This document shows, one piece after another, positions 1 to 38,128 of a stretch of DNA of 64,000 nt. The first letter of the stretch is position 1, and every line of letters begins with the position of its first letter. The notes under the pieces are model-generated. The model was not told the DNA's origin. It worked only from the letters and a program-made list of their open reading frames with translations, and made no database searches. The stretch comes from an uncultured Barnesiella sp. GTDB lineage: Bacteria; Bacteroidota; Bacteroidia; Bacteroidales; Muribaculaceae. Location: contig CAZJBM010000005.1 of NCBI GenBank assembly GCA_964544595.1, positions 1,324-65,323 of the forward strand. Direction: 5' to 3'. A program made the position numbers and the translations under genes.

Positions 1-771
1 CTCCCGATCATTTTCGAGGAACCGAAGATCCCTTACCGCGAAACCATAACTAAGGCAGCCCGCGCCGATTATCGCCACAAGAAGCAATCGGGCGGCGCAG
101 GCCAGTTTGGTGAAGTTCACTTAATTATCGAGCCTTATACCGAAGGAATGCCCGCACCCGACACCTATAAGTTCGGCAACCAGGAGTTCAAGATGAGCGT
201 CCGCGACACTCAGGAGATACCTCTGGCATGGGGCGGCAAGCTCGTTGTATGCAACTGTATCGTAGGCGGCGCTATCGATGCCCGATTCATCCCCGCTATC
301 GTGAAGGGATTGATGGACCGCATGGAGCAAGGCCCCCTCACAGGCTCTTACGCCCGCGACGTGCGCGTTTGCATTTACGACGGCAAAATGCACCCGGTTG
401 ACTCCAACGAAATCTCATTCCGCCTCGCCGGCCGTAACGCCTTCTCTGAAGCGTTCCGCAACGCCAACCCCAAAGTGCTTGAACCGATCTACGACGTTGA
501 GGTAATGGTGCCCGGCGACGTGATGGGCGACGTGATGAGCGACCTCCAGAGCCGCCGCGCGATCATTATGGGTATGTCGTCGGAGAACGGCTTCGAGAAA
601 CTCGTCGCAAAAGTGCCTCTCAAAGAGATGTCAAGCTACTCGACTGCCCTCAGCTCAATCACCGGCGGACGCTCATCGTTCACAATGAAGTTTGCGGGCT
701 ACGAACTCGTTCCCGGCGACGTTCAGGAGAAACTTCTCAAAGAATACGCCGAAAAGAATCAGGATGAGTAA
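1..771 (+). CDS. fusA: Elongation factor G C-terminal part (domains IV-V), 5'-partial; probably the second Bacteroidales EF-G paralog
   Basis: Frame 1 is open from base 1 (LPIIFEEPKIPYRETITK...HKKQSGGAGQFGEV), with DGKMHPVDSNEISFRLA, VLEPIYDVEV and ITGGRSSFTMKF motifs; not inside an rpsL-rpsG-fusA-tuf operon. Confidence 0.9.
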   Translation, partial: LPIIFEEPKIPYRETITKAARADYRHKKQSGGAGQFGEVHLIIEPYTEGMPAPDTYKFGNQEFKMSVRDTQEIPLAWGGKLVVCNCIVGGAIDARFIPAIVKGLMDRMEQGPLTGSYARDVRVCIYDGKMHPVDSNEISFRLAGRNAFSEAFRNANPKVLEPIYDVEVMVPGDVMGDVMSDLQSRRAIIMGMSSENGFEKLVAKVPLKEMSSYSTALSSITGGRSSFTMKFAGYELVPGDVQEKLLKEYAEKNQDE

Positions 772-877
772 TCTGCATGAACGGGACATGAGCCTATTCA
801 TAGATGAATACTTCACACTGAAAGCCCACATACATTACACACGCATAATCACCTGCGTGTCAACTGTCTGAACTCAA

Positions 878-913
878 TCAATCAGGAGTTCCCGCATGGG
901 AGCTTCTGATTGA
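878..913 (+). terminator. 16-bp hairpin downstream of EF-G, weak U-tract
   Basis: tcaatcaggagttccc-gcat-gggagcttctgattga; both mismatches are G-U pairs on the + strand. Confidence 0.55.
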
Positions 914-943
914 CTCTATAAGTAACTATATCGTTAACCCGCT

Positions 944-1561
944 ATGGCCATATGCAACATATTTGGTATTGACCGTCATCGACTCACTACCGATGGCGAT
1001 GGCGTAACAACTTTAGTGCTACTTCATAAGTGCCCGCTTAATTGCAAGTATTGTATCAATCCGCAATGTCAATTATCGGCCGATATCTTTCCAAGCTATA
1101 ATTCGGCGGAACTTTACGATATTGTAAAAATCGACAACATATATTTCGCAGCCACGGGAGGCGGGATAACATTCGGCGGGGGAGAGCCTGCCATGTATCC
1201 GGGCTTTATTACTGACTTATGGGCACTATGCGGCGACGTATGGAAACTCAATATTGAGACTTCGCTAAATGTTCCCGAAGAAAACATCCGACAGCTACTA
1301 CCTGTTATCAATCATTGGTATATCGACGTGAAAGATATGAACCCTCAAATCTACCGAAATTACACTGGTACCACCAACGACCGCGTGCTTCTCAATCTTG
1401 GGATTCTTAAGGAGGCAAAGGCACAATCTAAAGTTACGATTCGCCTACCGCTAATTCCCGATTTCAACTCCGAGGACGACATTATAAAAAGCAAACTACA
1501 ACTCAAGCAATTAGGATTCGACAACTTTGATATTTTTCAATACATAATACCTTCGATATGA
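944..1561 (+). CDS. Radical SAM protein, PflA / glycyl-radical-activase-like
   Basis: CPLNCKYC (CxxxCxxC), GGGITFGGGEP, IETS, IRLPLIPDFN; stop overlaps the next ATG (ATGA at 1558-1561). Confidence 0.85.
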   Translation: MAICNIFGIDRHRLTTDGDGVTTLVLLHKCPLNCKYCINPQCQLSADIFPSYNSAELYDIVKIDNIYFAATGGGITFGGGEPAMYPGFITDLWALCGDVWKLNIETSLNVPEENIRQLLPVINHWYIDVKDMNPQIYRNYTGTTNDRVLLNLGILKEAKAQSKVTIRLPLIPDFNSEDDIIKSKLQLKQLGFDNFDIFQYIIPSI

Positions 1562-2709
1562 CCAGAGGAAAGCGCACTTGCAAAATACTAAAGGATATAC
1601 GCCGGCAAATAGCTGAAGCAAACGATATACAACTAATCACCTCTGAGTGCACATACAAAGGTGACTGTCTCGGCACATGCCCGCGATGCGAAGCCGAGGT
1701 AGAATATCTTGAAAAGGAATTGGGCAAGCGACGCCGTAATGGCAAACTGGTAGCTTTGGCCGGAATCTCCATCGGCCTCCTCTCAACGAATGCCTTTGCT
1801 CAATCTTGCAATATCAACCCGGAACAGAATAAAGCGAATTTAACTACCGACTCTATAAAAAACGTATCGACCAACGTAGCTCGACAAGAAGTGATTTTTG
1901 AAGACAAGATATTCGGAGCTGACCCCTGTGTGATGCCAACTTTCCCCAATGGGGAGGCTGCACTACAGAAATTTATATCAGAAAACGGCATCTATCCTCC
2001 TGAAGCCGCTGTCGACAGCATTTCAGGACGCGTGGTTGTTCAGTTTGTCATCAAAAAGGATGGCTCAATCGGGGAAATAAAAATAGGTAGAGGTAAGCAT
2101 GATTTACTGAATAGAGAAGCCGTTAAAGTAGTGCGTAAACTACCAAACTTTAATCCCGGAAGAATTCATAGAGTTCCGCAAGACGTATGGTTTACAATGC
2201 CTATAAATTTCGGACTTGGTAATAAGGGGACAATTCATCCTGACTCAACCCTGGTTGCCGAATACTTATCAAGCCCCGAAGGGAAGAAACATATTGAGAG
2301 GAAACAAAATTCAGCAACCGGAAATGTAAGCAATGCGACCAACGAATATCCTGTTGAAAAGCCTAAATACCCAGGGGGAACAGACGCATTGATTAAAGAC
2401 TTAAAAAACAGCATTAAATACCCCGTCAAGGCCCTTAAAGATAAAATTGAGGGAAAGGTTGCAATTGTTTTTCTCGTGCTACTCGACGGCACAATCGATG
2501 ATATAAAAGTAGAGAATGACGCTAATCCCATGCTTGAAGAAGAGGTTGTGAAAGCGATTAAGACTTTAAAGACATTCAAGCCTGCCGAACTTTATGGGAT
2601 TGTCAACGAGTCTCATATAAAACTGTCGGTAAATTTCACAATTAACAAGAAAGCCTCCACCTATTCAAAGAAAGCAGGCATAATTGATATAAAAGTAATA
2701 GAGAATTAG
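1558..2709 (+). CDS. TonB C-terminal domain protein (two TonB-C domains) with N-terminal Cys-rich leader and signal/TM segment
   Basis: PTFPNGEAALQKFI..YPPEA..GRVVVQFVIKKDG and PKYPGG..YPVKA..GKVAIVFLVLLDG repeats; leader C8, C31, C37, C41, C44; KRRR plus hydrophobic stretch ending AFA-Q. Confidence 0.8.
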   Translation: MTRGKRTCKILKDIRRQIAEANDIQLITSECTYKGDCLGTCPRCEAEVEYLEKELGKRRRNGKLVALAGISIGLLSTNAFAQSCNINPEQNKANLTTDSIKNVSTNVARQEVIFEDKIFGADPCVMPTFPNGEAALQKFISENGIYPPEAAVDSISGRVVVQFVIKKDGSIGEIKIGRGKHDLLNREAVKVVRKLPNFNPGRIHRVPQDVWFTMPINFGLGNKGTIHPDSTLVAEYLSSPEGKKHIERKQNSATGNVSNATNEYPVEKPKYPGGTDALIKDLKNSIKYPVKALKDKIEGKVAIVFLVLLDGTIDDIKVENDANPMLEEEVVKAIKTLKTFKPAELYGIVNESHIKLSVNFTINKKASTYSKKAGIIDIKVIEN

Positions 2710-2720
2710 TAAGTATCGAA

Positions 2721-5033
2721 ATGAAAAAGTATATAATCGGATTAATCACTTTATCATCGGCAATATCTGGCTATGCCATTGACGCGCCGCAGAGTCAGTC
2801 CGACAAGCCGCGAATCATCATATCAACCGATATTGGTGGCACCGACCCCGACGATAATCAGTCGATGACTCATCTACTAATGTACAACAACCTCTTCGAC
2901 ATAGAGGGAATCGTTTCGTCGCCTTCTTTTGGCAACGGCAGCAAGGAGGAAATCATACGCATGATTGAGCTTTACGCCAAAGACTACCCCAAGCTTGCCT
3001 CGCGTCAGGAGGGATTTCTCTCTCCCGATTCCCTTATCGCAATCTGCAAGCAGGGTAACAAAACCGCCGCCCCCTTTGCGGGATACTCATTACTGACCGA
3101 AGGGTCGCGACATATATCGGAGTGCGCGCTCAGGGAATCTGACCGACCTCTATGGATACTTGTGTGGGGCACGCTCGACGACCTCGCGCAAGCGCTCCAC
3201 GACACCCCTGAGATAGCTTCGCGCATTCGCGTATATTACATCGGCGGCCCGAATAAGAAGTGGGGGGCCGACAGTTATGCCTATATCGCTAAAAATTTCC
3301 CCAATCTTTTCTTCATCGAGAACAACGCGTCTTATCGCGGCTTCCCATCAAGCCCCAACGCCGAGGGAATTTTCCAAAAAGACTACTACGAGACTTTTAT
3401 GCGTGGCGCGGGAGCTTTAGGCGCGGACTTCAAGAAATACTACGACGGGGTGGTAAAAATGGGGGATTCGCCGTCGCTTTTCTATCTCATGAAAGGAGAT
3501 CACGATAACCCGGAGGCTGACTCATGGGGAGGCAGATTTGAGCGCATCAGCCACTCTCCCCGCCACCAATTCAAAATCTCGGATGGGGCAAAGAATACGG
3601 CAACCACGTATTCGATCGTTGAATTCACTTTCAATGGCCCTTCAGTCAAAATTCCTACTGACTCAGCCTGCGTGACGCTCCATATCGACAAACAGGATTG
3701 GCCGGGCTATTATGCGGGAAAAGGTAAATATATAATCCGCTACAGCCCGAAGGCCCCCGGCAACCTTGAGTACACTATCACTTCACCTTTGAATGGTTTC
3801 AAGACCATCAAAGGTGAGCTTAGGGTCGAAGGCACCTTTCCAGGAGAGAGATCTAAAAACGACTACCGACTGGGCAAAAATTGGTACACCGACGTGAGCG
3901 ACCCCGCAATGGCGTCGGGCAAATGGCAGGGCGCGAAAACTATCGGCGCGCACCGAGAGGAGATTTTAAGCGACTGGGTAGAGCGACTTAACTGGATAAA
4001 GGACGACAGCATGGCCAACGCCGGAAAGAAGTCGATAAGAGTCGCCGACAGCGAGTTTTTCAAGACCGAGGAGGCGCGCCGAATCGGCAATCAGATAATT
4101 GCCTATCAACGCGCCACAGGCGGCTGGCCCAAGAACATCAATATGTCGATACCTTTCTCGGCGACCGAAGCTCAGAGCATTCTCGCCGATAAGGGTAGAA
4201 CAGATGACTCGACTACCGACAACACCGCCACAACCACACAAATATACTATCTCGCCCGGCTTTATAACGCAACAGGCGATGACGTTTACCGTAAGGGGGC
4301 TGAAGACGGGATACGCTTTCTGCTCGCCGGACAATATGATAACGGCGGCTGGCCCCAATTCTGGCCTAATCCCCACGGATACCAGATCCACATCACCTTC
4401 AACGACGACGCTATGACCAACACAATGGCACTGCTCAACCGCGTTTCGCACTCAATGGAGCCCTTCGACACCGACATTATCAGCGACGAGCTGCGACAAT
4501 CATCTAAAACGGCATTTGACAAAGGAGTGGAATGTATTCTAAAATGCCAGATTAAAGTTGACGGGAAGCCGACTGTTTGGTGCCAACAGCACGACAGAGA
4601 CACATACGCCCCTGCACCTGCAAGAGCGTTCGAGTTAGCGTCCTACTGCTCCTCGGAGAGCTCTGCTATCGTTTGGTTGCTGATGGATATACCCGACCCT
4701 TCGCAAGAAATAATCGATGCGATCGATGGCGCGATGAGATGGTTTGAAAAGTATAAGATCGAGGGAATAAGAATTGGATCAGATGGCGAAATCGACGGCA
4801 AGAAGAATCATATAGTGGTCAACGACGAGGCGGCTGAGCCTATATGGGCGCGTTTTTACGACTTGGTTGAGTGTGAGCCTATGTTTTGCGACCGCGACGG
4901 CATACCGCGCAAATCAATGGCAGAGATCGGTCCTGAACGCCGCAACGGATATTCATGGTATTCCTACGGACCGTCGTATCTCTATCCCCGATATAATGAA
5001 TGGAAATCAAAATTGACAACTAAAGCTAAATGA
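2721..5033 (+). CDS. pelA: Secreted fusion: DUF1593 (nucleoside-hydrolase-like) domain + family PL10 pectate lyase
   Basis: Signal peptide; RIIISTDIGGTDPDDNQS (DUF1593); C-half GGWPKN, TTDNTAT, DNGGWPQF, ITFNDDAM, WCQQHD, WARFY (PL10). Confidence 0.8.
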   Translation: MKKYIIGLITLSSAISGYAIDAPQSQSDKPRIIISTDIGGTDPDDNQSMTHLLMYNNLFDIEGIVSSPSFGNGSKEEIIRMIELYAKDYPKLASRQEGFLSPDSLIAICKQGNKTAAPFAGYSLLTEGSRHISECALRESDRPLWILVWGTLDDLAQALHDTPEIASRIRVYYIGGPNKKWGADSYAYIAKNFPNLFFIENNASYRGFPSSPNAEGIFQKDYYETFMRGAGALGADFKKYYDGVVKMGDSPSLFYLMKGDHDNPEADSWGGRFERISHSPRHQFKISDGAKNTATTYSIVEFTFNGPSVKIPTDSACVTLHIDKQDWPGYYAGKGKYIIRYSPKAPGNLEYTITSPLNGFKTIKGELRVEGTFPGERSKNDYRLGKNWYTDVSDPAMASGKWQGAKTIGAHREEILSDWVERLNWIKDDSMANAGKKSIRVADSEFFKTEEARRIGNQIIAYQRATGGWPKNINMSIPFSATEAQSILADKGRTDDSTTDNTATTTQIYYLARLYNATGDDVYRKGAEDGIRFLLAGQYDNGGWPQFWPNPHGYQIHITFNDDAMTNTMALLNRVSHSMEPFDTDIISDELRQSSKTAFDKGVECILKCQIKVDGKPTVWCQQHDRDTYAPAPARAFELASYCSSESSAIVWLLMDIPDPSQEIIDAIDGAMRWFEKYKIEGIRIGSDGEIDGKKNHIVVNDEAAEPIWARFYDLVECEPMFCDRDGIPRKSMAEIGPERRNGYSWYSYGPSYLYPRYNEWKSKLTTKAK

Positions 5034-6154: not shown

Positions 6155-6900
6155 TGGAGCAGAACTTTAGTGAGTATGACATCGAAAAGAAGAATCATAA
6201 TTGAGCTGGTAACTACGGCGTTGGTGCTCGCTTTGCCTACTTCGAGCGAGCCACCTTTCACGTAGTAACCGCAGTAGGAGGCAACCGACGAGATGATGAA
6301 CGCGAAAACAACCGACTTGATTATGCCGTACCATACATACCACTCATTGAACTGAGTCTGGATACCGTAGGTGAATTTCTGCACTGAAATAATATCGGTA
6401 AATATGGCAATGCAATAGCCGCCGAGCATCGCGGTGCCCATACAGAACACAACGAGGATAGGCACAAAGAAGAGGAAGGCGATGATTTTGGGCAACACCA
6501 GGAAATTGGCAGAATTGACACCCATAATGTCGAGTGCGTCGATCTGCTCGGTCACTCTCATGGTGCCTATCTCTGACGCGATGTTGGATCCGACTTTGCC
6601 GGCAAGAATCAGGCAAAGGATAGAGTTGGAGAACTCAAGGAGGATAATCTCGCGGGTAGCCAGACCAACGGAGTAGGCCGGCATGAGCGGCGAGGAGGTG
6701 TTCAACTGCATCTGAATTGTACATACCGCGCCGATGAAGAGCGAAACGATAACAACCAGCGGAATAGAGTCGACACCGAGTTTAGAAATCTCCGTGACGG
6801 TGCGCTTTCCGAAAATGCGCCAACGGTCGGGTATCGAAAACACGCGGCATATAAAGAGGCAATATTTGCCGAAATTTGATAACGATTTAGTCAGTAACAT
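6151..6900 (-). CDS. mlaE: MlaE family lipid ABC permease (start moved to ATG 6900)
   Basis: AGKVGSNIASEIGTMRVTEQIDALDIMG motif; minus-strand TAAATTTG at 6926-6933 favours the 6900 start. Confidence 0.9.
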   Translation of the reverse strand: MLLTKSLSNFGKYCLFICRVFSIPDRWRIFGKRTVTEISKLGVDSIPLVVIVSLFIGAVCTIQMQLNTSSPLMPAYSVGLATREIILLEFSNSILCLILAGKVGSNIASEIGTMRVTEQIDALDIMGVNSANFLVLPKIIAFLFFVPILVVFCMGTAMLGGYCIAIFTDIISVQKFTYGIQTQFNEWYVWYGIIKSVVFAFIISSVASYCGYYVKGGSLEVGKASTNAVVTSSIMILLFDVILTKVLLQ

Positions 6901-7077
6901 AGAAATTTTACGGGTAAACAACGCGCAAATTTACTAAATTCTTCGCAATAATGCTGAAATTTCCAATATTTCGGCATTATTTGCCACAGTAAATAATATT
7001 TCGGGGCGCAAAAATTTCTTGTGGCCGAAAAATTTGCTTAATTTCGTGGCGAAAATTCACATCTAATCCCTACGTTC

Positions 7078-25825: not shown

Positions 25826-27508
25826 ATGAGCAATACACAATCACTCGCGCCTAAGACGGTGCTTCGCAGTGGACACCAGGAATATATTATCGAGCGCGTG
25901 CTCGGAGCCGGAAGTTTCGGCATCACCTATCTGGCAAGCTCGTCGATCAGGCTTGGAAACGTCAGCATGACGGTGCATTTCGCCATAAAAGAGCATTTTA
26001 TGGATACTTGCTACCGACTTGAGGACGGGATGACCGTAAACTGCACGCCCGCGACCCGAAAGCAAACCGAAACCTCGCGCGCCGACTTCCTCACCGAAGC
26101 GAAACGTCTTCAAAAAATATGCCTCAAGGCTCCCGGCATCGTTAAGGTGAACGAGACATTTGAGGCGAACGGCACAGCTTATTACGTGATGGAGTATCTA
26201 GACGGGGGAAATCCAGAACCCATGAAGGAGCGCGACGCACTGAAGCTCATGATTCAGGTTGCCGACGCCGTTGCCGCGATCCACAGGGAGCGTATGCTTC
26301 ACCTCGATATAAAGCCCGGAAATATCGTGATGAAAACCACCGAAGAGGGAAACCACATACCCGTGCTCATCGACTTCGGCATATCGAAGCATTTCGACAG
26401 CAAAGGTCACCCGACAAGCCGCATCAAGGCAAAGGGGGTATCGGTAGGCTACGCGCCACAGGAGCAGTACTCCGAAATCAATGAATTTTCGCCCAAATAT
26501 GACGTATATGCCCTCGGAGGGGTGCTTTTCTATCTGCTGACGGGGAAAAACCCGCCGGCTGCCTTCGACATCGCGCCGAATATGGCGCAAATCGCAGAGA
26601 AGCTCCCAGCAGATGTGTCGGAAGCCACCCGCAAGGTGGTGCTCGACGCAATGCAGCCTCAAGCGTTCAACCGCACTCCCTCGGCTGAAGCCATGATAGG
26701 CCAACTCCAGCAAGCACTCATGCTTCTCGACGCGCCCAATCAACCCGCTATGCCGATACCGGCAATGCCACAACCCGCGGTTGCGAACCCCGCACCCGCA
26801 GCGATACCCAAGCCGCAGCCCAAAAGGGCTCAAGGGGGCGACAACGTGGTGGTAGCGGAAGCTGTCAGCGTAGCTCCCAAGCCCAAGGCGCAACCTAAGG
26901 CACAGGCTAAACCTAAACCTCAGCCCAAACCGCAGCCGCAGCGGGTAGCCACCGAACCGCTTACACGGGCAACCAATCGAAAAGAGAAACCCAATCAGCC
27001 GTACGGAGCGAAGCGCAAAGGAAGCAAGCTACCGCTTATAATCGGGGTATCGGTCGGAGTGGTAGTGGCGATTATCGCCGCGATAGCGTTGTCGTCGGAA
27101 AAGAAAAGTCGCCCTGTAAGCCCTGATGTGACATACACTGATAGCACGGTTGTCAACACTTCCGCACACTTCGTCTCGGAGAAAGTATTCTCTTGCCCCA
27201 ACGATTCGGGAACATTTGTCTACACCGGCCCCGTAAACTCGCAAGGACTCCCCGAAGGCAAGGGAAAAGGCGTATATGAGCTCGGCACATACGAAGGATA
27301 TTACAAAAACGGCGTTCGCGAGGGGGAAGCGATATATCGCACAAGAGATGGCTCAAACGTGTTTGAAGGCACGTACCACAACGACATGTATGACCACGGC
27401 AAACTTTATTTCCCGCTGAATGACAACATGTATTACGAAGGAACGTTCAAAAACAACGGTTTCGACGTCGGGCACACGTATAGCAGCGACGGCACCCGTA
27501 TTGATTAG
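25826..27508 (+). CDS. Hanks-type Ser/Thr protein kinase with Pro/Gln linker, TM helix and MORN-like periplasmic repeats
   Basis: LGAGSFGITY, AIKE, HLDIKPGN, DFG, YAPQE, DVYALG; C-terminal YTG..N..G.PEGKG, YEG.Y.NG.REG repeats; TATCTTTG at 25763-25770. Confidence 0.9.
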   Translation: MSNTQSLAPKTVLRSGHQEYIIERVLGAGSFGITYLASSSIRLGNVSMTVHFAIKEHFMDTCYRLEDGMTVNCTPATRKQTETSRADFLTEAKRLQKICLKAPGIVKVNETFEANGTAYYVMEYLDGGNPEPMKERDALKLMIQVADAVAAIHRERMLHLDIKPGNIVMKTTEEGNHIPVLIDFGISKHFDSKGHPTSRIKAKGVSVGYAPQEQYSEINEFSPKYDVYALGGVLFYLLTGKNPPAAFDIAPNMAQIAEKLPADVSEATRKVVLDAMQPQAFNRTPSAEAMIGQLQQALMLLDAPNQPAMPIPAMPQPAVANPAPAAIPKPQPKRAQGGDNVVVAEAVSVAPKPKAQPKAQAKPKPQPKPQPQRVATEPLTRATNRKEKPNQPYGAKRKGSKLPLIIGVSVGVVVAIIAAIALSSEKKSRPVSPDVTYTDSTVVNTSAHFVSEKVFSCPNDSGTFVYTGPVNSQGLPEGKGKGVYELGTYEGYYKNGVREGEAIYRTRDGSNVFEGTYHNDMYDHGKLYFPLNDNMYYEGTFKNNGFDVGHTYSSDGTRID

Positions 27509-27550: not shown

Positions 27551-27585
27551 AATGAGCCCAAGTTCTTAAAAAACCTGGGCTCATT
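27551..27585. terminator. Bidirectional terminator between kinase and htpG
   Basis: aatgagccca / tgggctcatt, A/T-rich flanks. Confidence 0.65.
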
Positions 27586-27608: not shown

Positions 27609-29636
27609 TTAAAGCAGATTGACCGAGCGGCGGATGAAGTCGGAGAGCGACTGACCGCGAAGGAGACCGTTGCCGAGGAGAGCGAGGTCGATCACCTGCT
27701 TAACGAGAGGCTGAGCCGCGGCATAGTCGGCCACGGTCTTGTCCATACGCGAGCGAGTGTCGGCCACTTCTTTTTCGAGGGTCTCCGACTTCTTCTCAGG
27801 GTCGGCATCCTTGTCGGCACGCAATTTTGTGATTTCGCTATTCTTGGCGTCGATTTCATCGAGCATAGGCTGGACGGTAGCATCGAGAGCCGAGTCGGCA
27901 TCGGCAAGAATCTTCTTAATTACAGGCTGCTCGACATTGACGATAAGGTTGTAGCTGTCGGGAAGCTCAGCGTAGAAGCTCATGCCGGGCTGCAGAGAAG
28001 CCATCTCTTTCATACGGCGCATATACTCATTCTGAGCAATGACGACAGGGAGATCGTCGGCTGAAAGCGACTCGAACGTAACCACGAAATTAGCCTTGTC
28101 GACCGCTGGGGTCTGCGAGGAAAACACGGTAGAGAGGATGCTGCGCTGAAGCGGGGTGAGATTAGCCTCGCGGCGGTCGGTCTTGCGGATAAGGTTATCC
28201 ACGATGTCGGCGTCGACGCGGGTGAAGTGGCTCTTCTCAATCTTCTGCTCAAGCAACCCTACGAAGTGGTTATCGAGCTGACCGTCCATAAGCAGAACCG
28301 AATAGCCCTTATCGGTAGCCGACTTGATAGCGTTGTACTGCGCATCGGTGTCGGTAGCATAGAGATATACGACGGTGCCGTCTTTGTCGGTCTGCTCTGG
28401 CTCGATAAGTTTGCGATACTCCTCGAGAGTGAAATACTTGCCTTCGGTAGTCTTCACGAGGCAGAATTTCATAGCCGCGTCGCAGAATTTGGGGTCGGTA
28501 AGCATACCATACTCGATGAAGAGCTTGATGTCGTCCCACTTCTGCTCAAATTCAGAGCGGTTTTCCTTAAAGATTTCCTCAAGGCGCGAAGACACCTTCT
28601 TGGTGATGTAAGTAGAGATTTTCTTCACGGCAGAGTCGCTCTGAAGATAAGAACGGCTTACGTTAAGAGGAATGTCGGGGGAATCGATGACACCCTGAAG
28701 GAGCATCATGAATTCGGGAACGACGCCCTCAACCGAGTCGGTCACGTAAACCTGATTAGAGTAGAGCTGGATGCGATTTTTCTGCACCTCGATGTTATTC
28801 TTGATTTTCGGGAAATAAAGAATACCTGTAAGAGTGAAGGGGTAATCCACGTTGAGGTGAATCCAGAAGAGGGGGTCGTCCTGACCGGGATAGAGGGCAT
28901 GGTAGAATTTGAGGTAATCGTCGTCGGTGAGGTCGGTAGGTTTCTTAAGCCATGCCGGCTCAAGGGCATTGACGACGTTGTCTTCATCGGTATCGACGTA
29001 TTTGCCGTCTTTCCATTCCTGCTTCTTGCCGAAAACCACAGGCACGGGAAGGAAGCGGCAATATTTCTTCAATAAGCCCTCGATAGTGGAGCGTTCGAGA
29101 TACTGCTTGTTGTCGTCGTCGATATAAAGGATCACGTCGGTGCCGCGGGTTGTCTTGTCGCACTCGGTCATCTCATACTCAGGCGAGCCGTCGCAGGTCC
29201 ATTCAACCGCCTTGGCGCCCTCCTTGTAAGAGAGCGATTTGATAACGACTTTCTTAGCCACCATGAAGGCGGAGTAGAAACCGAGGCCGAAATGGCCGAT
29301 AATGGCGTTGACGTTGTCTTTATATTTCTTGAGAAACTCCTCAGCGCCTGAGAAGGCAATCTGGTTGATGTACTTGTCGATGTCGGCGGCATCCATGCCC
29401 ACGCCGTGGTCGCTCACGGTAAGCGTGCCGGCTTCGGGATCGATGCTGACGTAAACGCGCGCGTCGCCGATTTCGCCCTTGAACTCGCCGAAAGCTGAAA
29501 GCGTGCGGAGTTTCTGGGTGGCGTCGACGGCGTTGGATACAAGCTCGCGGAGGAATATTTCGTGATCGCTATAGAGAAACTTTTTGATGACGGGGAAGAT
29601 GTTCTCGGTCGTAACCCCGATTGAACCTTTTTGCAT
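27609..29636 (-). CDS. htpG: Molecular chaperone Hsp90
   Basis: YSDHEIFLRELVSNAVDA, IGHFGLGFYSAF, QLYSNQV, IPLNVSRSYLQ. Confidence 0.96.
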   Translation of the reverse strand: MQKGSIGVTTENIFPVIKKFLYSDHEIFLRELVSNAVDATQKLRTLSAFGEFKGEIGDARVYVSIDPEAGTLTVSDHGVGMDAADIDKYINQIAFSGAEEFLKKYKDNVNAIIGHFGLGFYSAFMVAKKVVIKSLSYKEGAKAVEWTCDGSPEYEMTECDKTTRGTDVILYIDDDNKQYLERSTIEGLLKKYCRFLPVPVVFGKKQEWKDGKYVDTDEDNVVNALEPAWLKKPTDLTDDDYLKFYHALYPGQDDPLFWIHLNVDYPFTLTGILYFPKIKNNIEVQKNRIQLYSNQVYVTDSVEGVVPEFMMLLQGVIDSPDIPLNVSRSYLQSDSAVKKISTYITKKVSSRLEEIFKENRSEFEQKWDDIKLFIEYGMLTDPKFCDAAMKFCLVKTTEGKYFTLEEYRKLIEPEQTDKDGTVVYLYATDTDAQYNAIKSATDKGYSVLLMDGQLDNHFVGLLEQKIEKSHFTRVDADIVDNLIRKTDRREANLTPLQRSILSTVFSSQTPAVDKANFVVTFESLSADDLPVVIAQNEYMRRMKEMASLQPGMSFYAELPDSYNLIVNVEQPVIKKILADADSALDATVQPMLDEIDAKNSEITKLRADKDADPEKKSETLEKEVADTRSRMDKTVADYAAAQPLVKQVIDLALLGNGLLRGQSLSDFIRRSVNLL

Positions 29637-29689
29637 AAGATTATATTGTTATTTAGTTTCTTTTTTTCAAATTCTATATAAATAACAAT

Positions 29690-29705
29690 TACAAAAAAAA
29701 TGCCA
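29690..29705 (-). promoter_or_regulatory. sigma54-like -24/-12 element upstream of htpG (TTGT variant)
   Basis: Minus strand TGGCATTTTTTTTGTA = GG-N10-GT. Confidence 0.4.
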
Positions 29706-29783
29706 CACCGATAAGCGTGACATTTTTCCTTAAATTATGTTAACGAATCTGACAAAAGGGCAGACCGTCGTCGCGGGCGGGGA

Positions 29784-31022
29784 TTAGTATTTCTCAAGCT
29801 GTTCGATGCGCTTGAGGTTAGAATCATCCTTCAGGTTATAGTAGATATTGCGCAGAAGGGGGAGGGTCTTAGAGGCCATGTTGTCCTCATCGAGCTGATA
29901 GGCTTTCTCGAGATAGCCCGCAGCTTCGCGGAATATGGGATAAACCTGCTCGTCGAGAGCTTTGTTGTACTCGGCAGTGGGGAGATTTGAGATCTCGTCG
30001 GAGTCGGAAAGGATGATAGCCTTGTTGTAGATCGTGCGGCCATAGTTGAAGAGGGCGTTGGCATTTTCGGGGGCAAGGTCGAGCGACTTCTTGTAGTCGG
30101 CCATAGCTTTCTCGGGCTCGTCCTTGGTGTCGTAAATGACGCCGCGCACATAGTAGAGCTGAGCGTTGTTGGGGTCGGCCTGGATATACTGTTCGAGCAT
30201 CGACATGGCTTCGTCGTACTGTTTGTTCTGGAGCTTGTCGTTGATCATGAAGCCGATATAGCGGTCATCCTCTTTGCCGAAGAGGGGGAAAGCCTGCGAG
30301 GCGTACTCGGCCATGCGGGCGTTGTCGCCTTTCTGGCTGGCGACGCTGATAGCGTAGTCGTAGACGGCTTTCTTGTCGTAGCCTTTGGCGATAGCCATGT
30401 CGAAGGCAGCGAGAGCGTCGTCGAGGCGCTCGGCCTGCCATGCGGCGAGACCCATGTTGAAGTTCATGTCGGCGATAGTGGAGTCGGCCGGAGCAGTGGG
30501 TGCGTTAGCGCCGAGGATAGGGTTGTGGGGAGCGTTGAGGTAGATATACCATGCGTCGTACGCGCCCTGATAGTCCTGCACGCCCCAGAGATATACGCCT
30601 GCGTTGGCGAAGTCCTGCGCCACATAGTGGTCTTTGATGAGCTTGATAGCGTTTTTTGAATATTTAGGCTTGATCTGGCCTTTCTCGTTGGGGAGAGAGT
30701 CCTTCTGCATAGCGGTCAAGAGGTTGTAGTAACCGTCGATCATAGCGTGGCCGGCAGCCTTGTCGTCGACCTGCTTGCCGATAGCGCGCTGGCCCTGGAG
30801 ATGATCAGAGAATTTGAACGCTGCTTCGCCGATCATGAAGTAAGGCTGAGCGAGGTCTTTGGTCTCGGGATTTTCGAAAGCGGGCTTGATAGCCGTAGCC
30901 TGGGCGGGATAATTCTCGATATTGGATTTAAGCTGACGCTCAACGTCCTTAACGAGGCTCGTTTGGGCCGACATACCGAGTACTGCGCCGCAGCAAAGGC
31001 TTAGGATAGCGATTTTTTTCAT
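29784..31022 (-). CDS. Secreted tetratricopeptide-repeat protein
   Basis: Signal peptide ending AQ; multiple TPR patterns (A..AF..AI, P.NA..YY.RG.IY, ALFNYG). Confidence 0.85.
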   Translation of the reverse strand: MKKIAILSLCCGAVLGMSAQTSLVKDVERQLKSNIENYPAQATAIKPAFENPETKDLAQPYFMIGEAAFKFSDHLQGQRAIGKQVDDKAAGHAMIDGYYNLLTAMQKDSLPNEKGQIKPKYSKNAIKLIKDHYVAQDFANAGVYLWGVQDYQGAYDAWYIYLNAPHNPILGANAPTAPADSTIADMNFNMGLAAWQAERLDDALAAFDMAIAKGYDKKAVYDYAISVASQKGDNARMAEYASQAFPLFGKEDDRYIGFMINDKLQNKQYDEAMSMLEQYIQADPNNAQLYYVRGVIYDTKDEPEKAMADYKKSLDLAPENANALFNYGRTIYNKAIILSDSDEISNLPTAEYNKALDEQVYPIFREAAGYLEKAYQLDEDNMASKTLPLLRNIYYNLKDDSNLKRIEQLEKY

Positions 31023-31199
31023 ATCTTTTGGTTTAAAGTAAGAATTCTGACTGATAGTAGGGTTTGAATACTGACTATTATAATAAATACTGACTATTAT
31101 AATATGTGTGGCAAACCGTGGTTGATGTTGAAAGTCCCCAAAGTTAAACCTTATATTTCAATAATCAAAATATATCGGTTGAATTGTAGGAAACGCGCG

Positions 31200-33812
31200 T
31201 CATTCGTTGGGTTCTTCCTCGCGGTGGGCCTCGGCGATGTCGTCGACAACGTTTTCGTTGGCCTCATCTACAGGGTTCTCCTCGATAGCGGGGAGCTCTT
31301 CGCCGCCCTGCTCTATAGCGTCGACTTCCTCTTCGGGGTCGGTCGCGACGCAGCAAACCGAAGCGATCTCGTCGTCGCGCTTGTCGAGGTTGATGATGCG
31401 CACGCCCTGAGTGGCACGACCCATTAGGCGGATGTCGGTGACGTGGAATCGGAGCGTGATGCCCGACTTGTTGATAATCACGAGGTCGTTGTCGTCGTTA
31501 ACGCTCTTGATAGCCACGAGAGTGCCTGTCTTGTCGGTGACGTTGATTGTCTTGACGCCTTTGCCGCCGCGGTTGGTGACGCGGTAAGCGTCGAGGTCGG
31601 TACGCTTGCCGTAGCCTTTCTCTGAGATCACCATGACGTTGTTGGGGGTGTTCTCCGACATGCATATCATGCCTACGACCTCATCGTCGGGGCCGTCGAG
31701 GGTCATGCCTCGCACGCCTGTCGACACGCGGCCCATCTGGCGCACTTTGGATTCGTGGAATCGGATGGCGCGTCCGTTGCGGTTGGCCATGAGTATCTCT
31801 GAATTGCCGTCGGTAAGGTCGACGTCGATTACCTGGTCGCCCTCGCGGATTACGATGGCCTTCTTGCCTTTGACGTTGATACGGGCGTACTCGGCGAGCG
31901 AAGTCTTCTTGATCACTCCGTTGCGGGTGGCGAAGACGAGGTTGTGGGAGTTGGTGTACTCAGGATCGGAGAGGTGCTTGCAGTGGATGAACGCGTTGAC
32001 CGAGTCGCCCGGCTCAATGTTGAGCAGATTCTGTATCGCGCGGCCCTTCATGCTCTTGCTGCCTTCGGGAAGCTCATAGACTTTGAGCTTGTAGACTAGG
32101 CCCTTGCGGGTGAAAAAGAGCATATCGGCGTGCATCGAGGCTGTATATATATACTCGATGAAATCCTCTTCGCGGGCCTTGGAGCCGCGGGAGCCGACAC
32201 CGCCGCGGTTCTGCGCGCGGAATTCGGAGAGGGGAGTGCGCTTGATATAGCCGAGATGAGAGATAGTGATGATCATGTCGTCGTCGGCATAGAAGTCCTC
32301 GGCGTTAAAGTCGCCGGCGGTATAGTCGATAGCGGTCATGCGCTTGTCGCCGTAAGTGTCGCGCACCTCGGCGAGCTCGTCCTTCATGAGCTGGCGGCAA
32401 ACGCCGTCGTCGTTGAGGATAAGCTCAAGGCGGGCAATAGTCTCCTCAAGCTCGCGGTAACGCTCGTTGAGCTTGTCCTGCTCAAGTCCGGTGAGCTGTT
32501 TGAGGCGCATATCGACGATAGCCTGGGTCTGCACGTCGTCGAGGCTGAAACGCTCGCCAAGACGCTGCTTGGCCTCGTCGGTCGAAGCCGAGGAGCGGAT
32601 TATGTGGATCACCTCGTCGATATTCTGGCTGGCGATGATAAGGCCCTCGATGATATGGGCCTGGCGCTGAGCCTCGGCGAGGTCGAATTTCGTGCGGCGG
32701 ATTACCACCTCATGGCGATGCTCGATGAAGGCCATCAGGAGGTCTTTGAGATTGAGCAGCTTGGGGCGGCCATGGACGAGGGCGACATTGTTGACCGAGA
32801 ACGACGCCTGGAGCTGCGACATCTTGTAGAGCTTGTTGAGGACGACGTTGGCGTTGGCGTCCTGCTTAAGGCGGATGACGATACGCATGCCCTCGATGTT
32901 GCTCTCGTCGGCGAGGTCGGCGATGCCCTCGATCTTCTTCTCGGTGACAAGCTCGGCGATGTATTTCACGAGCTCGGCTTTGTTGACACCGTAGGGGATT
33001 TCGGTCACGATAAGGGATTCGTGCTCTGCCTCCTGCTCGATCTCGACTTTGGAGCGTATCACGATACGCCCGCGGCCTGTCTCAAACGCCTCTTTGACTC
33101 CGTTGTAGCCGTAGATGATGCCTCCGGTAGGGAAGTCGGGAGCTACGATATGGTGCATCAGCTCGGGGATAGTCAGGTCGGGGTTGTCGATGAGGGCGAT
33201 CGAGGCGTTGATGGCCTCGGTCAGGTTATGAGGAGGCATATTAGTGGCCATGCCGACGGCGATACCTGCAGCGCCGTTGACCAGAAGGTTGGGGAAGAGG
33301 GTAGGGAGCACCACGGGCTCGCGCTTGGAGTTGTCGTAGTTGGGCTGGAAATCGACCGTGTCTTTATTGATGTCGGCGAGCATGTCCTCGCCTATCTTGC
33401 GCAGACGCACCTCGGTGTAACGCATAGCCGCGGGGGAGTCGCCGTCGACCGAGCCGAAGTTGCCCTGGCCGTCGACGAGGGTGTAGCGCATAGCCCATGG
33501 CTGCGCCATTCTCACTACGGTACCATAAATCGAGGAGTCGCCGTGGGGGTGGTATTTACCCATCACTTCTCCCACGCAGTTGGCTGATTTCTTATATGGG
33601 TGGTTGGAGGTGTTGCCCATCTCGTTCATGCCGAAGAGCACTCGGCGCTGCACAGGTTTGAGACCGTCGCGGGCATCGGGAAGCGCGCGGCTCACGATCA
33701 CCGACATGGAGTAGTCGATGTAAGCCGATTTCATCTCATTCTCGATGTTGATTTTGACGATACGGTCGTCAGCTTTTTCCATTTCTTCCATTTGCGAAAA
33801 TTTTATGGTCAT
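31200..33812 (-). CDS. gyrA: DNA gyrase subunit A (alternative start 33791)
   Basis: [32 protein letters not shown], GyrA-box QNRGGVG, acidic tail. Confidence 0.97.
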
Positions 33813-34004
33813 GGCAGCGGCTTGAGCCGCCGGGAGAGGCCATGATTTTCCACTTATATTTTAGTCTAAATATGTTTAAAAAATCGGTTAATGTATTATA
33901 TGATGTTAAATCAACATACAAAGGTAAGGATTTTTGCGGAATTTTTCGTAACTTTGAATTGCAGAAATGCAGACAACATATATAAATAACGTTAAAATGG
34001 AGTT

Positions 34005-34020
34005 TGGCACGGTTATTGCT
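34005..34020 (+). promoter_or_regulatory. sigma54 consensus -24/-12 element upstream of clpC
   Basis: TGGCACG-GTTA-TTGCT matches TGGCACG-N4-TTGCW; a primary-sigma TAACTTTG lies at 33949-33956. Confidence 0.6.
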
Positions 34021-34171
34021 GTGCCTCAAAACGGAGCGACGAGGCCCGCCAAGCCCCTCAACGCCGCCTCATAGGGGCGCGGGGGGCCGGAGCGAGAGCC
34101 TATGACAGCGGCCAACCGCAGCCGCCTTCGCCGCGCTCCATATATAAAAATGTAATCAGTAAAGCGTAAAT

Positions 34172-36730
34172 ATGGAAATAAATTTCTCTGACAAGCTCAA
34201 GACCGCGCTCGACAACAGCCGCCGCGAGGCCGCTCGCCACAACAACGCGACAGTCACCCCGGCCCACCTGCTTCTCGCGCTTATCGCCAACCCCGCCTCC
34301 CGCGCCGGGTCGATACTTGAGAAGATAGCCCGCGAAGTGTCGGTCTATCAGTTGCAACAGCAGCTCGACAGCAGCCTATTTGACTCGCAGCCCCATTCGT
34401 CGGCCGAAATCGCCATCAGCGACCTCGCCAACCGCCTTGTGCGCCTCTCGGTGTTAGAGTCGAGGATGATGCGCAGCGACGTTGTCGACGAGGAGCATCT
34501 CCTCATGGCGATATTCCACAACTCAGAGGTGCAGCAGATGGAGTTCATGAAGCCCTTCCGCGACGCCGGCATCACCTACGAGGCCATATACTACTCTCTG
34601 GCCAACAAGCCCGAGACCCCTTCGGCCGGAGCCGGATACAGCGAGGACGAGGAGGATGACGACGACGATATGCCCGGCGGGGGAGCGACCTCGTCGCAGA
34701 GCAAATACTCTTCGGGCAAAACGAAGTCGAACACCGGCGACACCCCGGCTCTCGACAAATTCGGCAACGACATGACCCGCCTCGCCGAGGAGGGGCGTCT
34801 CGACCCGGTCATAGGCCGCGACAACGAGATCGAGCGTCTCGCCCAGATACTCTCGCGCCGCAAGAAGAACAACCCGGTGCTTATCGGCGAGCCCGGCGTG
34901 GGCAAATCGGCCATCGTCGAGGGCCTGGCGCTCCGTATAGTCCAGCGCAAGGTTTCGCGCATACTCTTCGACAAGCGCGTGATCTCGCTCGACATGGCTT
35001 CGCTCGTGGCCGGAACGAAATACCGCGGCCAGTTTGAGGAGCGTCTAAAGTCGATACTCAACGAGCTTGCCAAGAACGACAACATAATCCTCTTCATCGA
35101 CGAGCTCCACACCATAGTCGGGGCGGGCAACGCAGCCGGGTCGATGGACGCGGCCAACCTTCTGAAGCCCGCTCTCGCCCGAGGCGAAATACAATGCATC
35201 GGCGCCACGACGCTCGACGAATACCGCAAGAACATCGAGAACGACGGCGCGCTCGAACGCCGCTTCCAGAAAGTGATGGTAGAGCCGACTTCGCCCGAAG
35301 AGACCCTTGAGATTCTCCGCAACGTTAAGGATAAATACGAGGCGCACCACAACGTCAACTACACCGACGAGGCCCTCAGAGCGTGCGTCAACCTTACCGA
35401 GCGCTACATCTCTGACCGCACCTTCCCCGACAAGGCCCTCGACGCCCTCGACGAAGCGGGGTCGAGAGTCCATGTCACCAACATACGGGTGCCTGAGGAA
35501 ATCGAAGCGCTTGAAAACCAGATCGTGACAGCCGGCGAATCGAAGCTCGCCGCGGTGAAAAACCAGAATTTCGAGCAGGCCGCATCGTTCCGCGACAAGG
35601 AGACGCAGCTCAAGAAGCAGCTCGAAGAGGCCAAGAAGCAATGGGAAGCGCGACTGGCCAACGAGCGCGAGACCGTCGACGACGAGAAGGTGGCCGAGGT
35701 GGTAGCGATGATGACGGGAGTGCCCGTGCAGCGCGTGGCGCAGGCCGAAGGCACCCGCCTCAAGGCGATGAACCCTCAGCTCAAATCGGCCATCATAGGC
35801 CAGGACGCGGCTATCGATAAGATCGTGAAGGCGATACAGCGCAACCGCGTAGGGCTTAAAGACCCCAATAAGCCGATAGGCACGTTCATGTTCCTCGGCC
35901 CGACCGGCGTCGGCAAGACCCACCTCGCCAAGATGCTCGCCGAATATCTCTTTGACTCGGCCGACACGCTTATACGCATCGACATGAGCGAGTACATGGA
36001 GAAATTCACCGTCAGCCGACTCGTGGGCGCGCCTCCGGGATACGTAGGCTACGAGGAGGGTGGACAGCTCACGGAGAAGGTGCGCCGACGCCCCTACTCG
36101 GTTGTGCTGCTCGACGAGATTGAGAAGGCCCACCCCGACGTGTTCAACCTCCTCCTCCAGGTGCTCGACGAGGGCCGTCTCACCGACTCGCTCGGCCGCA
36201 AGATCGACTTCAAGAACACGCTCATCATTATGACCTCCAACATCGGCACACGCCAGCTCAAGGATTTCGGCGCGGGCGTCGGCTTCAACACCCAGGGCAA
36301 GGTGAGCAAAGAGCAGAGCCACGGCGTGCTTCAAAAAGCGCTCAACAAGGCTTTCGCCCCCGAGTTCCTTAACCGTATCGACGACATAATCATGTTTGAC
36401 CCCCTCTCGAAGGAGGCTATCTACAAGATTATCGACATAGAGCTCGCGGGATTCTATAAGCGCATCGACCAGCTTGGCTACCGTCTCGACATCACCGAGC
36501 AGGCCAAGAGCTTCATCGCCGACAAGGGCTACGACCAGCAGTATGGCGCGCGCCCGCTGAAGAGAGCGATCCAAAAATATCTGGAGGACAACCTCGCCGA
36601 GATGATTATCGACGCCGACGTGAAGCCTGGCGACACTATCAGAGTGGAGCTCAACGAGGCCGGCGACGACGTGGTCTGCACCATAGTCCACCCCGAGCCT
36701 GAGCAGCAGCCTGAGCAGTCGGGCGAGTAG
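34172..36730 (+). CDS. clpC: ATP-dependent Clp protease ATP-binding subunit, ClpC type
   Basis: Clp-N repeats; [18 protein letters not shown]-like coiled coil, [28 protein letters not shown]. Confidence 0.93.
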
Positions 36731-36751: not shown

Positions 36752-36832
36752 GAACACAAAGAAACAGCAACACACGCTATAACGCATTATGCATCAATGC
36801 ATTACGGCGTGTGTTGCTGTTTCTTCCGTTTC
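36752..36832. repeat. 81-bp palindromic element, copy 1
   Basis: Perfect 19-bp stem aagaaacagcaacacacgc / gcgtgtgttgctgtttctt; ends shared with copy 2. Confidence 0.8.
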
Positions 36833-38128
36833 TTAGGCTATACCGTTGATGATGCGAGAGACGGTAGTGCGGTTAGCCCCGATGCTGTCGGCGAATTTGC
36901 TGACGTTGCGGATAGGGTAGTGGCTATGAATGAGCTTAATGGCATCGCTCTTCGACAACTCCATCAGAGGAGCCTGCCTGGCCTTTATCACCGAGTAGAC
37001 TCTCATCGCGTTCCTCTCGAAGCAGAGCATAAGAGCGGCGGCGTCGGCCATAGTCTCGCCCGGAATGGTGAAAATCACGTCGAGATCAACCCCGTATGCC
37101 TCGTAGCCCCCTCCGGCGTAGCAGAGATTTGAGGCCACGTTGAATAGGTGGAGTATGCCGGCTATGCGCAGTATCTGTATCTGGCATTTCGAGTAGACCG
37201 AACGCTCGTAGTCGCATTTGGCCGCGTATTTCTTTACCTGGAGATCGTTATAGTATTCGATATAAACCTCTTTGGCTTCTTTGTCGGGAACGAGAGGGCG
37301 ATTAGTAGGGTTACTGAAGCGCGAAAACTCGCGGATATACGCCTCCCAGTGTTTTTGCAGCTCCTCGTTAGGCAAATCCTCGCTGTAAAGCCCATAACTC
37401 GGCGAGTCCTCGTAGTTGAAGAGAAACCTCTGGTTGAGGCCGTTGGCGAGAAACTTAGGGTCGCCAAACGCCTTGCTCAACAGAGCGGGCTGTATGTCGC
37501 CTATGATGTTCATAAACGGATTGCGTATATCCCAGGGATTATCGTCGCTCTTACGGTTGACGCTTATATCATCGCCGTCGTAGATACGGAGGAGCTTCGC
37601 GCTACCGTCAGATGCGCTATAACGGCTCATATCGTCGAAAAAGCCTTTTATCTCAGGGTAGTAACAGAGAATACCTTTAGGATTGTTGTGAATCACCTTA
37701 AGGCGGGCTTCCTCGGTAGAGTCACTGATAATAAGCTGATGACATACAGGTATAGGATCGTCAGGCCCTGCTTTTGCCTTCTCCATCTTGTATTGGTCGA
37801 TCATCTCTCGGTTTATATCAAACAGGGGAGCGAGCACCTTTCTTACGGGAGCCGTCTTGTTAGTGCCGCTCTTAGCCACGTTAACCATCCACAGCATCAA
37901 CGGATTATCATACTTGCCGTCATATACATGAACCTTGTTTCCTATCACCGACGATGCGGCTACCAACACAGCCGACGTCACGAAATCTCTCGGGCACTGA
38001 TACGTATAAGCAATATCGGCTATGAACTGACTTATCTTCCCCGGAAATACCTCTATAGGTAGCTCTTCAAGAAAACCGCCGCCGCAGGCAGTATCCACCT
38101 CATTAATCTTATCTTTCTCCATATTCAC
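36833..38128 (-). CDS. DUF3987 (YfjI-like) protein with C-terminal HTH, typical of integrative elements
   Basis: LPIEVFP, LWMVNVAKSGTNKT, ISDSTEEA, PKGIL, IIGDIQP, GLNQRFLF; C-terminal SKFADSIGANRTTVSRII. Confidence 0.75.
   Translation of the reverse strand: MNMEKDKINEVDTACGGGFLEELPIEVFPGKISQFIADIAYTYQCPRDFVTSAVLVAASSVIGNKVHVYDGKYDNPLMLWMVNVAKSGTNKTAPVRKVLAPLFDINREMIDQYKMEKAKAGPDDPIPVCHQLIISDSTEEARLKVIHNNPKGILCYYPEIKGFFDDMSRYSASDGSAKLLRIYDGDDISVNRKSDDNPWDIRNPFMNIIGDIQPALLSKAFGDPKFLANGLNQRFLFNYEDSPSYGLYSEDLPNEELQKHWEAYIREFSRFSNPTNRPLVPDKEAKEVYIEYYNDLQVKKYAAKCDYERSVYSKCQIQILRIAGILHLFNVASNLCYAGGGYEAYGVDLDVIFTIPGETMADAAALMLCFERNAMRVYSVIKARQAPLMELSKSDAIKLIHSHYPIRNVSKFADSIGANRTTVSRIINGIA

Follow-up and report, generated by a model that had tools for sequence, protein, structure and literature searches.

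The question raised by this locus is which promoters drive chaperone genes in Bacteroidales. In a 64,000-nt stretch of contig CAZJBM010000005.1 from an uncultured Barnesiella sp. (Muribaculaceae; hereafter the window), htpG, encoding an Hsp90, and a clpC-like gene are each preceded by a sequence of the -24/-12 type. Sigma-54 (RpoN) binds GG-N10-GC and requires an enhancer-binding ATPase, and an original prediction had read the two sites as signs of a sigma-54-driven protein-quality-control regulon in Bacteroidales. The window was compared with loci fetched from relatives (together ~1.5 Mb; L numbers denote these loci). The clpC and htpG sites are most probably genuine sigma-54 promoters of a protein-quality-control regulon of Bacteroidota, that of htpG being embedded in a terminator. 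The basis for this is the sequence, its conservation, covariation of the terminator stem, a T-run fixed at 8 nt, and a transcript boundary followed by a restart in a relative; we infer dependence on RpoN, an ATPase activator and induction by stress.

The clpC site (GG at 34006-7, GC at 34018-9) fits 12/12 specified positions of the sigma-54 consensus; it lies 152 nt ahead of the ATG at 34172 and has a predicted +1 near 34031. The exact TGGCACG-N4-TTGCT described by the original prediction is present and unique: TGGCACGGTTATTGCT is the sole zero-mismatch TGGCACG-N4-TTGCW in the window, where 0.027 such matches per 64 kb are expected by chance (first-order Markov simulation, both strands). GG-N10-GC by itself occurs ~600 times, equal to the chance level. 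TGGCAY-N5-TTGY has exactly two matches, the clpC and htpG sites, both in sense orientation and each upstream of a chaperone gene. On the minus strand, the htpG site consists of TGGCA (29705-29701), T8 (29700-29693) and GTA (29692-29690) and reads TGGCAT-N5-TTGTA, with GG at 29704-3, GT at 29692-1 (GG-N10-GT) and a predicted +1 near 29679.

As had also been described, clpC possesses a box for the primary sigma factor (Bacteroidota sigma-A), TAACTTTG, besides its sigma-54 box, and htpG was confirmed to have no nearby TAnnTTTG, no match being found from 28406 to 31139. The closest sequence to a primary-sigma box near htpG, TAGAATTTG, is one base too long and is located 20 nt downstream of the element. 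The sigma-A box upstream of clpC is kept as TAAyTTTG in relatives where gyrA is the divergent neighbour. Alignment of five related gyrA-clpC intergenic regions revealed the sigma-54 box as an invariant island (TTTGGCACrrTTATTGCw), its distance from the primary-sigma box ranging from 12 to ~125 nt. A conserved block, AAATAA(A/C)(T/G)TTAA(A/T), at 33984-33997 between the two boxes was also seen in 4/5 relatives, including L082, L083 and L085.

Through their proteins, clpC loci were fetched from seven distinct close relatives, and all seven contained a sense TTTGGCAC-N5-TTGC (TTGT in one) starting 38-167 nt before the start codon. The box was kept despite a different upstream gene, encoding a metal ATPase in L087 and a sulfatase in L089. 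It was also present in Phocaeicola, Bacteroidaceae, Prevotella, another Muribaculaceae and unclassified Bacteroidales metagenome-assembled genomes (MAGs), with TTGT at -12 in several of them. A broad ClpC scan across Bacteroidota detected the box in Bacteroidales families only; it was not found in Odoribacter, Paludibacteraceae, Sphingobacteriia, Chitinophagia or Cytophagia. Two Flavobacteriaceae loci (L019 and L036) had AGGTAY-N5-TTGCC ~61-62 nt before clpC, possibly a variant of the -24 element peculiar to this class.

A search for HtpG in metagenome contigs yielded 80 loci (60-79% identity) with 57 distinct upstream regions, all from Bacteroidales metagenomes. A sense TGGCAY-N5-TTGY within 150 nt of htpG was found in 52 of these regions, against a background of 0.004 per 150 nt in the remainder of the loci, an enrichment of ~200-fold at orthologous positions. 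Of the five exceptions, three had a TTGA variant; TTGA at -12 was seen at htpG in L022, L117 and L141. All 29 unique strict intergenic sites with a downstream open reading frame (ORF) in the fetched loci preceded clpC or htpG. The original prediction had proposed a scan of chaperone genes across Bacteroidales, clpC and htpG among them, and would have been abandoned had the sites proved not to be conserved; since they are conserved, its reading of them as sigma-54 sites stands. A -24/-12-like sequence, TGGCACGGATTTTGA, with TTGA at -12 was observed ~95 nt before the start codon of groES in a Bacteroidales MAG (L053, 4806-4820).

The 11-10-11 inverted repeat reported at 29696-29727 around the htpG site is real, with 10/11 positions complementary and the mismatch forming a U.G pair in the htpG-sense RNA, and it can now be explained as an intrinsic terminator, the 3' arm and U-tract of which also belong to the promoter. 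This terminator comprises an A-tract (29727-29723), a 9-bp stem (29722-29714/29709-29701), a loop (29713-29710) and U8 (29700-29693), and the hairpin with its A/U extension folds at -18.6 kcal/mol (z = -6.65). TGGCA of the -24 element forms the final five bases of the hairpin 3' arm, and U8 provides the spacer and the TT of TTGY. Two forms of the htpG promoter occur in relatives, either a plain TTGGCACG-N4-TTGC without a hairpin or TGGCA-T8-GY with one. The hairpin is confined to promoters with a T-run spacer, always has 8-10 bp, and its 3' arm always ends in TGGCA.

In an alignment of 20 homologous elements, 96.7% of the stem cells were paired and four pairs (26 cells) showed changes on both sides; the observed values were attained in 0/500 shuffles, and slid controls paired at 30-50%. 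One stem pair was U.G in 12/20 sequences and C.G in 8/20, indicating that the pairing is located in the htpG-sense RNA. The T-run following TGGCA was exactly 8 nt and was followed by G in 36/36 unique contexts, and none was longer. A terminator alone would not fix this length, whereas the GG-N10-GY spacing demands it. To judge from these sequence patterns, the fusion of terminator and promoter appears to be under double selection across several Bacteroidales families.

In most Bacteroidales loci (L082, L085, L089 and L091-L170 compared), clpC immediately precedes htpG in the same orientation. The hairpin is thus the terminator of clpC in most Bacteroidales, and the ancestral layout is clpC, terminator/promoter, htpG. 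Where clpC and htpG nearly abut (L085 and L086, each with a 15-nt gap, and L034), there is no separate htpG box, and where they are divergent (L120 and L141), two divergent boxes are found. In the window and L081, htpG stands behind a unit of gyrA and a TPR-repeat gene, on the other strand, with the whole ~150-nt upstream module retained.

Transcripts across the element were examined in L136, for which stranded pure-culture RNA sequencing data were available (RNA-seq; four raw-read runs from two studies, random-primed and not 5'-end libraries). The landmarks in L136 are the hairpin (2402-2425), T-run (2426-2433), GC (2434-2435) and an expected sigma-54 start at ~2447. In X24, sense depth over the clpC 3' end fell ~50-fold, from ~765 to ~14, just before the hairpin and stayed low through the T-run and GC. 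All four runs gave one picture, a drop in depth followed by a rise from 2445-2458. Read-through past the hairpin in L136 was ~2%. The 5' ends piled up at 2448 (X23) and 2453 (X22), i.e. +13 and +18 from the -12 C at 2435, as seen in these random-primed libraries. TAnnTTTG was not present in the stretch of restart. The ratio of htpG to clpC depth varied from 1.0 to 4.5 between runs, indicating that htpG has its own promoter. Contigs of L012-like Phocaeicola from gut metatranscriptomes ended 4-36 nt before the stem, and L012-like clpC contigs began at 6957-6962, right after a primary-sigma box (6946-6953) that in L012 is located downstream of the sigma-54 box (6887-6901).

The features of the locus are collected in Table 1.

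Table 1. Genes and regulatory elements of the htpG-clpC region (window coordinates)
Feature	Position	Strand	Basis or remark
Intrinsic terminator of htpG itself	27551-27585	-	Terminator scan
htpG (Hsp90), 675 aa	27609-29636	-	Pfam HSP90 and HATPase_c; NCBIfam HtpG equivalog
Predicted sigma-54-type -24/-12 promoter of htpG, TGGCATTTTTTTTGTA	29705-29690	-	54 nt before htpG
Intrinsic terminator of the gyrA-TPR unit	29693-29730	-	Terminator scan, fold, covariation, RNA-seq of the homologous element of L136
CTG-N9-CAG palindrome-like motif, CTGCCCTTTTGTCAG	29763-29749	-	~45 nt before the -24 box of htpG
TPR-repeat gene	29784-31022	-	
gyrA	31200-33812	-	
Primary-sigma -7 box facing gyrA, TACCTTTG	33926-33919	-	Pattern scan, intergenic alignment
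Primary-sigma (Bacteroidota sigma-A) -7 box, TAACTTTG	33949-33956	+	Pattern scan; upstream member of the clpC tandem pair
Predicted sigma-54-type -24/-12 promoter of clpC, TGGCACGGTTATTGCT	34005-34020	+	Exact consensus, conservation
GC-rich stretch, ~130 nt, ~70% G+C	34021-34150	+	Between the sigma-54 box and the clpC start
clpC-like gene (class-I Clp/Hsp100 ATPase), 852 aa	34172-36730	+	Divergent from gyrA

HtpG scored 621.8 bits against the NCBIfam HtpG equivalog (cut-off 371). The product of the clpC-like gene contained the Pfam domains Clp_N, AAA, AAA_lid_9, UVR, AAA_2 and ClpB_D2-small, scored below the cut-offs of the NCBIfam ClpB and ClpA equivalogs, and had homologs labelled ClpC in their source records, the nearest of which (73-89% identity) belonged to gut metagenomes or to MAGs with the label Muribaculaceae, Muribaculum or Barnesiella. 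The gyrA-TPR pair was also found in loci of relatives. Convergent with htpG is a gene for a 560-aa Ser/Thr protein kinase (25826-27508, plus strand); L081 has a two-component pair there. A long perfect hairpin (36759-36826), different from the htpG-type hairpin, follows clpC, and next to it lies a DUF3987 gene (36833-38128) on the strand opposite to clpC. This gene was not found in L081, where clpC is followed by rplY (L25) and pth; it looks like an inserted mobile-element remnant, and further downstream the window is syntenic with L081. No Rfam match at gathering thresholds was detected in the entire window.

The GC-rich stretch between the sigma-54 box and clpC was not seen in any relative, indicating an insertion; the clpC leaders of relatives are AT-rich and 22-146 nt long. 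When tested as a mobile element or repeat, it proved to lack further copies, both elsewhere in the window and in the fetched loci, and its fold energy was only modestly better than that of shuffles (z = -1.8). A similar GC-rich stretch was noticed upstream of htpG in L116.

A candidate activator-binding site, or a small hairpin, could be the CTG-N9-CAG motif, which from the sequence comparison has the same relative place in many Muribaculaceae-type htpG upstream regions (e.g. CTGACAATTCGTCAG in L103 and CTGACGTTTAGTCAG in L112) and was not found at clpC promoters. CTGACA/TGTCAG was ~5-fold enriched upstream of the boxes in Muribaculaceae-type htpG regions only, a signal to which the hairpin arm and the C-terminal codons of ClpC contribute. 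A motif search of ORFs in the locus flanks of relatives detected no GAFTGA-type activator or RpoN signature apart from one regulator in L171 (extended L081 locus, 1-3717). There, an NtrC-type response regulator (2389-3717) and a histidine kinase (1091-2374) are encoded directly downstream of htpG. This regulator was considered as a heat-shock activator and dropped, being paired with a histidine kinase and facing an ABC transporter of the MacB type, for which regulation by sigma-54 in Bacteroidia has been reported before; regulator, kinase and transporter are probably a separate sigma-54 module whose adjacency to htpG is coincidental.

Several observations weigh against sigma-54 promoters at clpC and htpG. 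An ORF motif search of the 64-kb window detected neither rpoN nor a gene for an activator with the GAFTGA signature; with neither encoded in the window, the existence of the machinery is presumed from what is known of the order, the literature placing rpoN in Bacteroidia (PMC12316311). An upstream activator site common to the clpC and htpG promoters was not found by k-mer enrichment and motif marking. At -12, the htpG site has GT in place of the near-invariant GC. This GT is shared with the four closest HtpG relatives (L091-L094) and recurs in the clpC boxes of Phocaeicola and Bacteroidaceae, which marks it as a variant of the clade rather than a sign of decay. The 130-nt leader insertion of clpC is confined to the genome of the window and might impair expression. 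Every transcript datum comes from relatives with 61-66% protein identity and none from the organism of the window. In L136, the 5' ends of X24 are located at 2457-2464, 22-29 nt past the -12 C and 10-17 nt beyond expectation, which could be an effect of the random-primed library. In addition, depth at the clpC 3' end of L136 drops 14-29 nt upstream of the stem in all four runs, and in three of them 3' ends pile up there, at 2373 and 2388, and not at the U-tract, unlike a textbook terminator; processing, priming bias or termination by another route could account for these piles. Finally, the primary-sigma box is where the L012-like clpC transcripts begin, the sigma-54 start being left uncovered. 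The clpC sigma-54 promoter looks silent in those gut samples, although contigs cannot prove absence, and the pattern fits tandem clpC promoters of which one is basal and the other inducible.

The htpG element might be a Rho-independent terminator only, with htpG expressed from an unrecognised primary-sigma or extracytoplasmic-function (ECF) promoter or by read-through. Its hairpin and U8 are canonical for a terminator and covary strongly, the near-canonical TAGAATTTG is at hand in the window, and the -12 element is GT, not GC. Terminators, however, are not expected to keep TGGCA at the stem base, a T-run of exactly 8 nt and G[C/T] while the inner stems have all changed, and lineages without the hairpin have the plain promoter form in the same position. 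TAnnnTTTG is not conserved, being absent from L081 and L136, and despite read-through of ~2% in L136, htpG depth there is at least that of clpC, with a restart ~13-20 nt past GC. A terminator without a sigma-54 promoter is therefore very unlikely. Another explanation is that the boxes are ancestral sigma-54 promoters, now decayed or silent in this genome, and that clpC relies on its sigma-A promoter. The GT of htpG, the clpC leader found in the window only, the use of the sigma-A start in the L012-like metatranscriptomes and the origin of all transcript data from relatives would agree with this. A perfect consensus at clpC, a GT shared with the four closest HtpG relatives and with clpC boxes of other families, and a hairpin 5' arm that is still fully complementary make such decay quite unlikely.

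Repressors offer a further explanation, in which the TGTCA...TGGCA repeat would be the operator of a dimeric DNA-binding regulator analogous to HrcA/CIRCE or CtsR. CIRCE (TTAGCACTC-N9-GAGTGCTAA) and the CtsR box gave zero matches in the window at up to three mismatches, in line with the original prediction, which had seen neither box. HrcA-CIRCE and CtsR serve the same class of targets (dnaK, groE, clp) but with a repressor-operator logic. The outer half-sites of the repeat are conserved in sequence, and in P. gingivalis, where no CIRCE was found, the groES, dnaK and clpB promoters are bound by RprY, but that of htpG is not (PMC3646045). The distance between half-sites is variable (stems of 8-10 bp, loops of 3-6 nt), the inner stem covaries freely, on the opposite strand the conserved U.G pair would become a C.A mismatch that is meaningless for a DNA palindrome, and the clpC boxes have no such repeat; we regard an operator as highly improbable. 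As for chance matches in AT-rich intergenic DNA, the bare GG-N10-GC is indeed as frequent as chance predicts, but the low expectation for the exact consensus, the enrichment at orthologous positions and the restriction of all strict sites to the same two genes leave this explanation with hardly any probability, and conservation of the sites refutes it.

Among known systems, E. coli has sigma-54 stress promoters at pspA (via PspF), ibpB and rpoH (P6), and ibpB has both a heat-shock sigma and a sigma-54 promoter. The likeness is a -24/-12 promoter with an AAA+ activator for stress or chaperone genes, but the core heat-shock regulon of E. coli is driven by sigma-32, sigma-54 being peripheral; we know of no sigma-32 in Bacteroidota. 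In Myxococcus xanthus, the HsfA/HsfB two-component sigma-54 activator controls the heat-shock protease gene lonD; this phylum is unrelated, and the activator is identified there. The closest parallel in the phylum is Flavobacterium psychrophilum, for which Guerin et al. 2021 (PMC9723704) reported a -24/-12 motif (SM4), mapped by transcription start sites, at groES-groEL, lon, dnaK, grpE-dnaJ, htpG, skp and clpB. The same study lists three PF00158 candidate activators, none of them assigned, and blood agar, osmotic stress and plasma as inducing conditions, not heat as such (PMC9723704). That regulon thus resembles the present one in its phylum, its -24/-12 promoters at chaperone genes including htpG and its likewise unassigned activator. 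It differs in belonging to Flavobacteriia rather than Bacteroidia and in listing ClpB and not ClpC, and no overlap with a terminator is described in the text consulted (PMC9723704).

A comparative survey with position-specific scoring matrices (PLoS One 2025, PMC12316311) found sigma-54 promoters enriched at chaperone COGs in Bacteroidota, COG0326 (HSP90) in Bacteroidia and COG0542 (Clp ATPases) in Flavobacteriia and Bacteroidia, i.e. the two gene families of the window. It presents statistics at the level of COGs and gives no promoter anatomy, sigma-A/sigma-54 tandem, terminator overlap or clpC-htpG linkage. For B. thetaiotaomicron, it cites its reference 80 for grpE and groES being dependent on sigma-54. 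In the papers searched, we found nothing on rpoN genetics of heat shock in Bacteroidales or on a terminator-embedded sigma-54 promoter. The sigma-54-driven chaperone regulon of the original prediction is supported by conserved sites before clpC and htpG orthologs but was an idea already published; the only new feature found here is that an intrinsic terminator and the sigma-54 promoter of htpG are fused.

With sigma-54 promoters at both genes, the upstream primary-sigma promoter of clpC would serve basal expression, and the downstream -24/-12 promoter would add activator-dependent expression, presumably triggered by stress. Having no canonical primary-sigma box, htpG would be driven by the -24/-12 promoter merged with the terminator of the preceding unit; in the window and L081, it would have moved behind gyrA-TPR with this module intact. 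It is doubtful, though conceivable, that the merger is functional and not mere compactness. The closed complex of sigma-54 holoenzyme on TGGCA-T8-GY could be a roadblock that strengthens termination, since it would sit exactly where upstream transcripts are released; conversely, polymerases reading through could clear the closed complex.

Nothing is overturned by these results, the basic claim having been in the literature before. To the published statistical association they add an anatomy: a sigma-A/sigma-54 tandem at clpC, a conserved clpC-htpG unit, an order-wide TTGY variant at -12, and a terminator whose 3' half doubles as the htpG promoter, with RNA-seq support for a restart there. Bacteroidales are dominant gut bacteria whose heat-shock control has not yet been tested genetically, and the precise bases to mutate are now defined. 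If the merger does act in either of the two ways, it would couple transcription of clpC (or of gyrA-TPR) to the inducibility of htpG.

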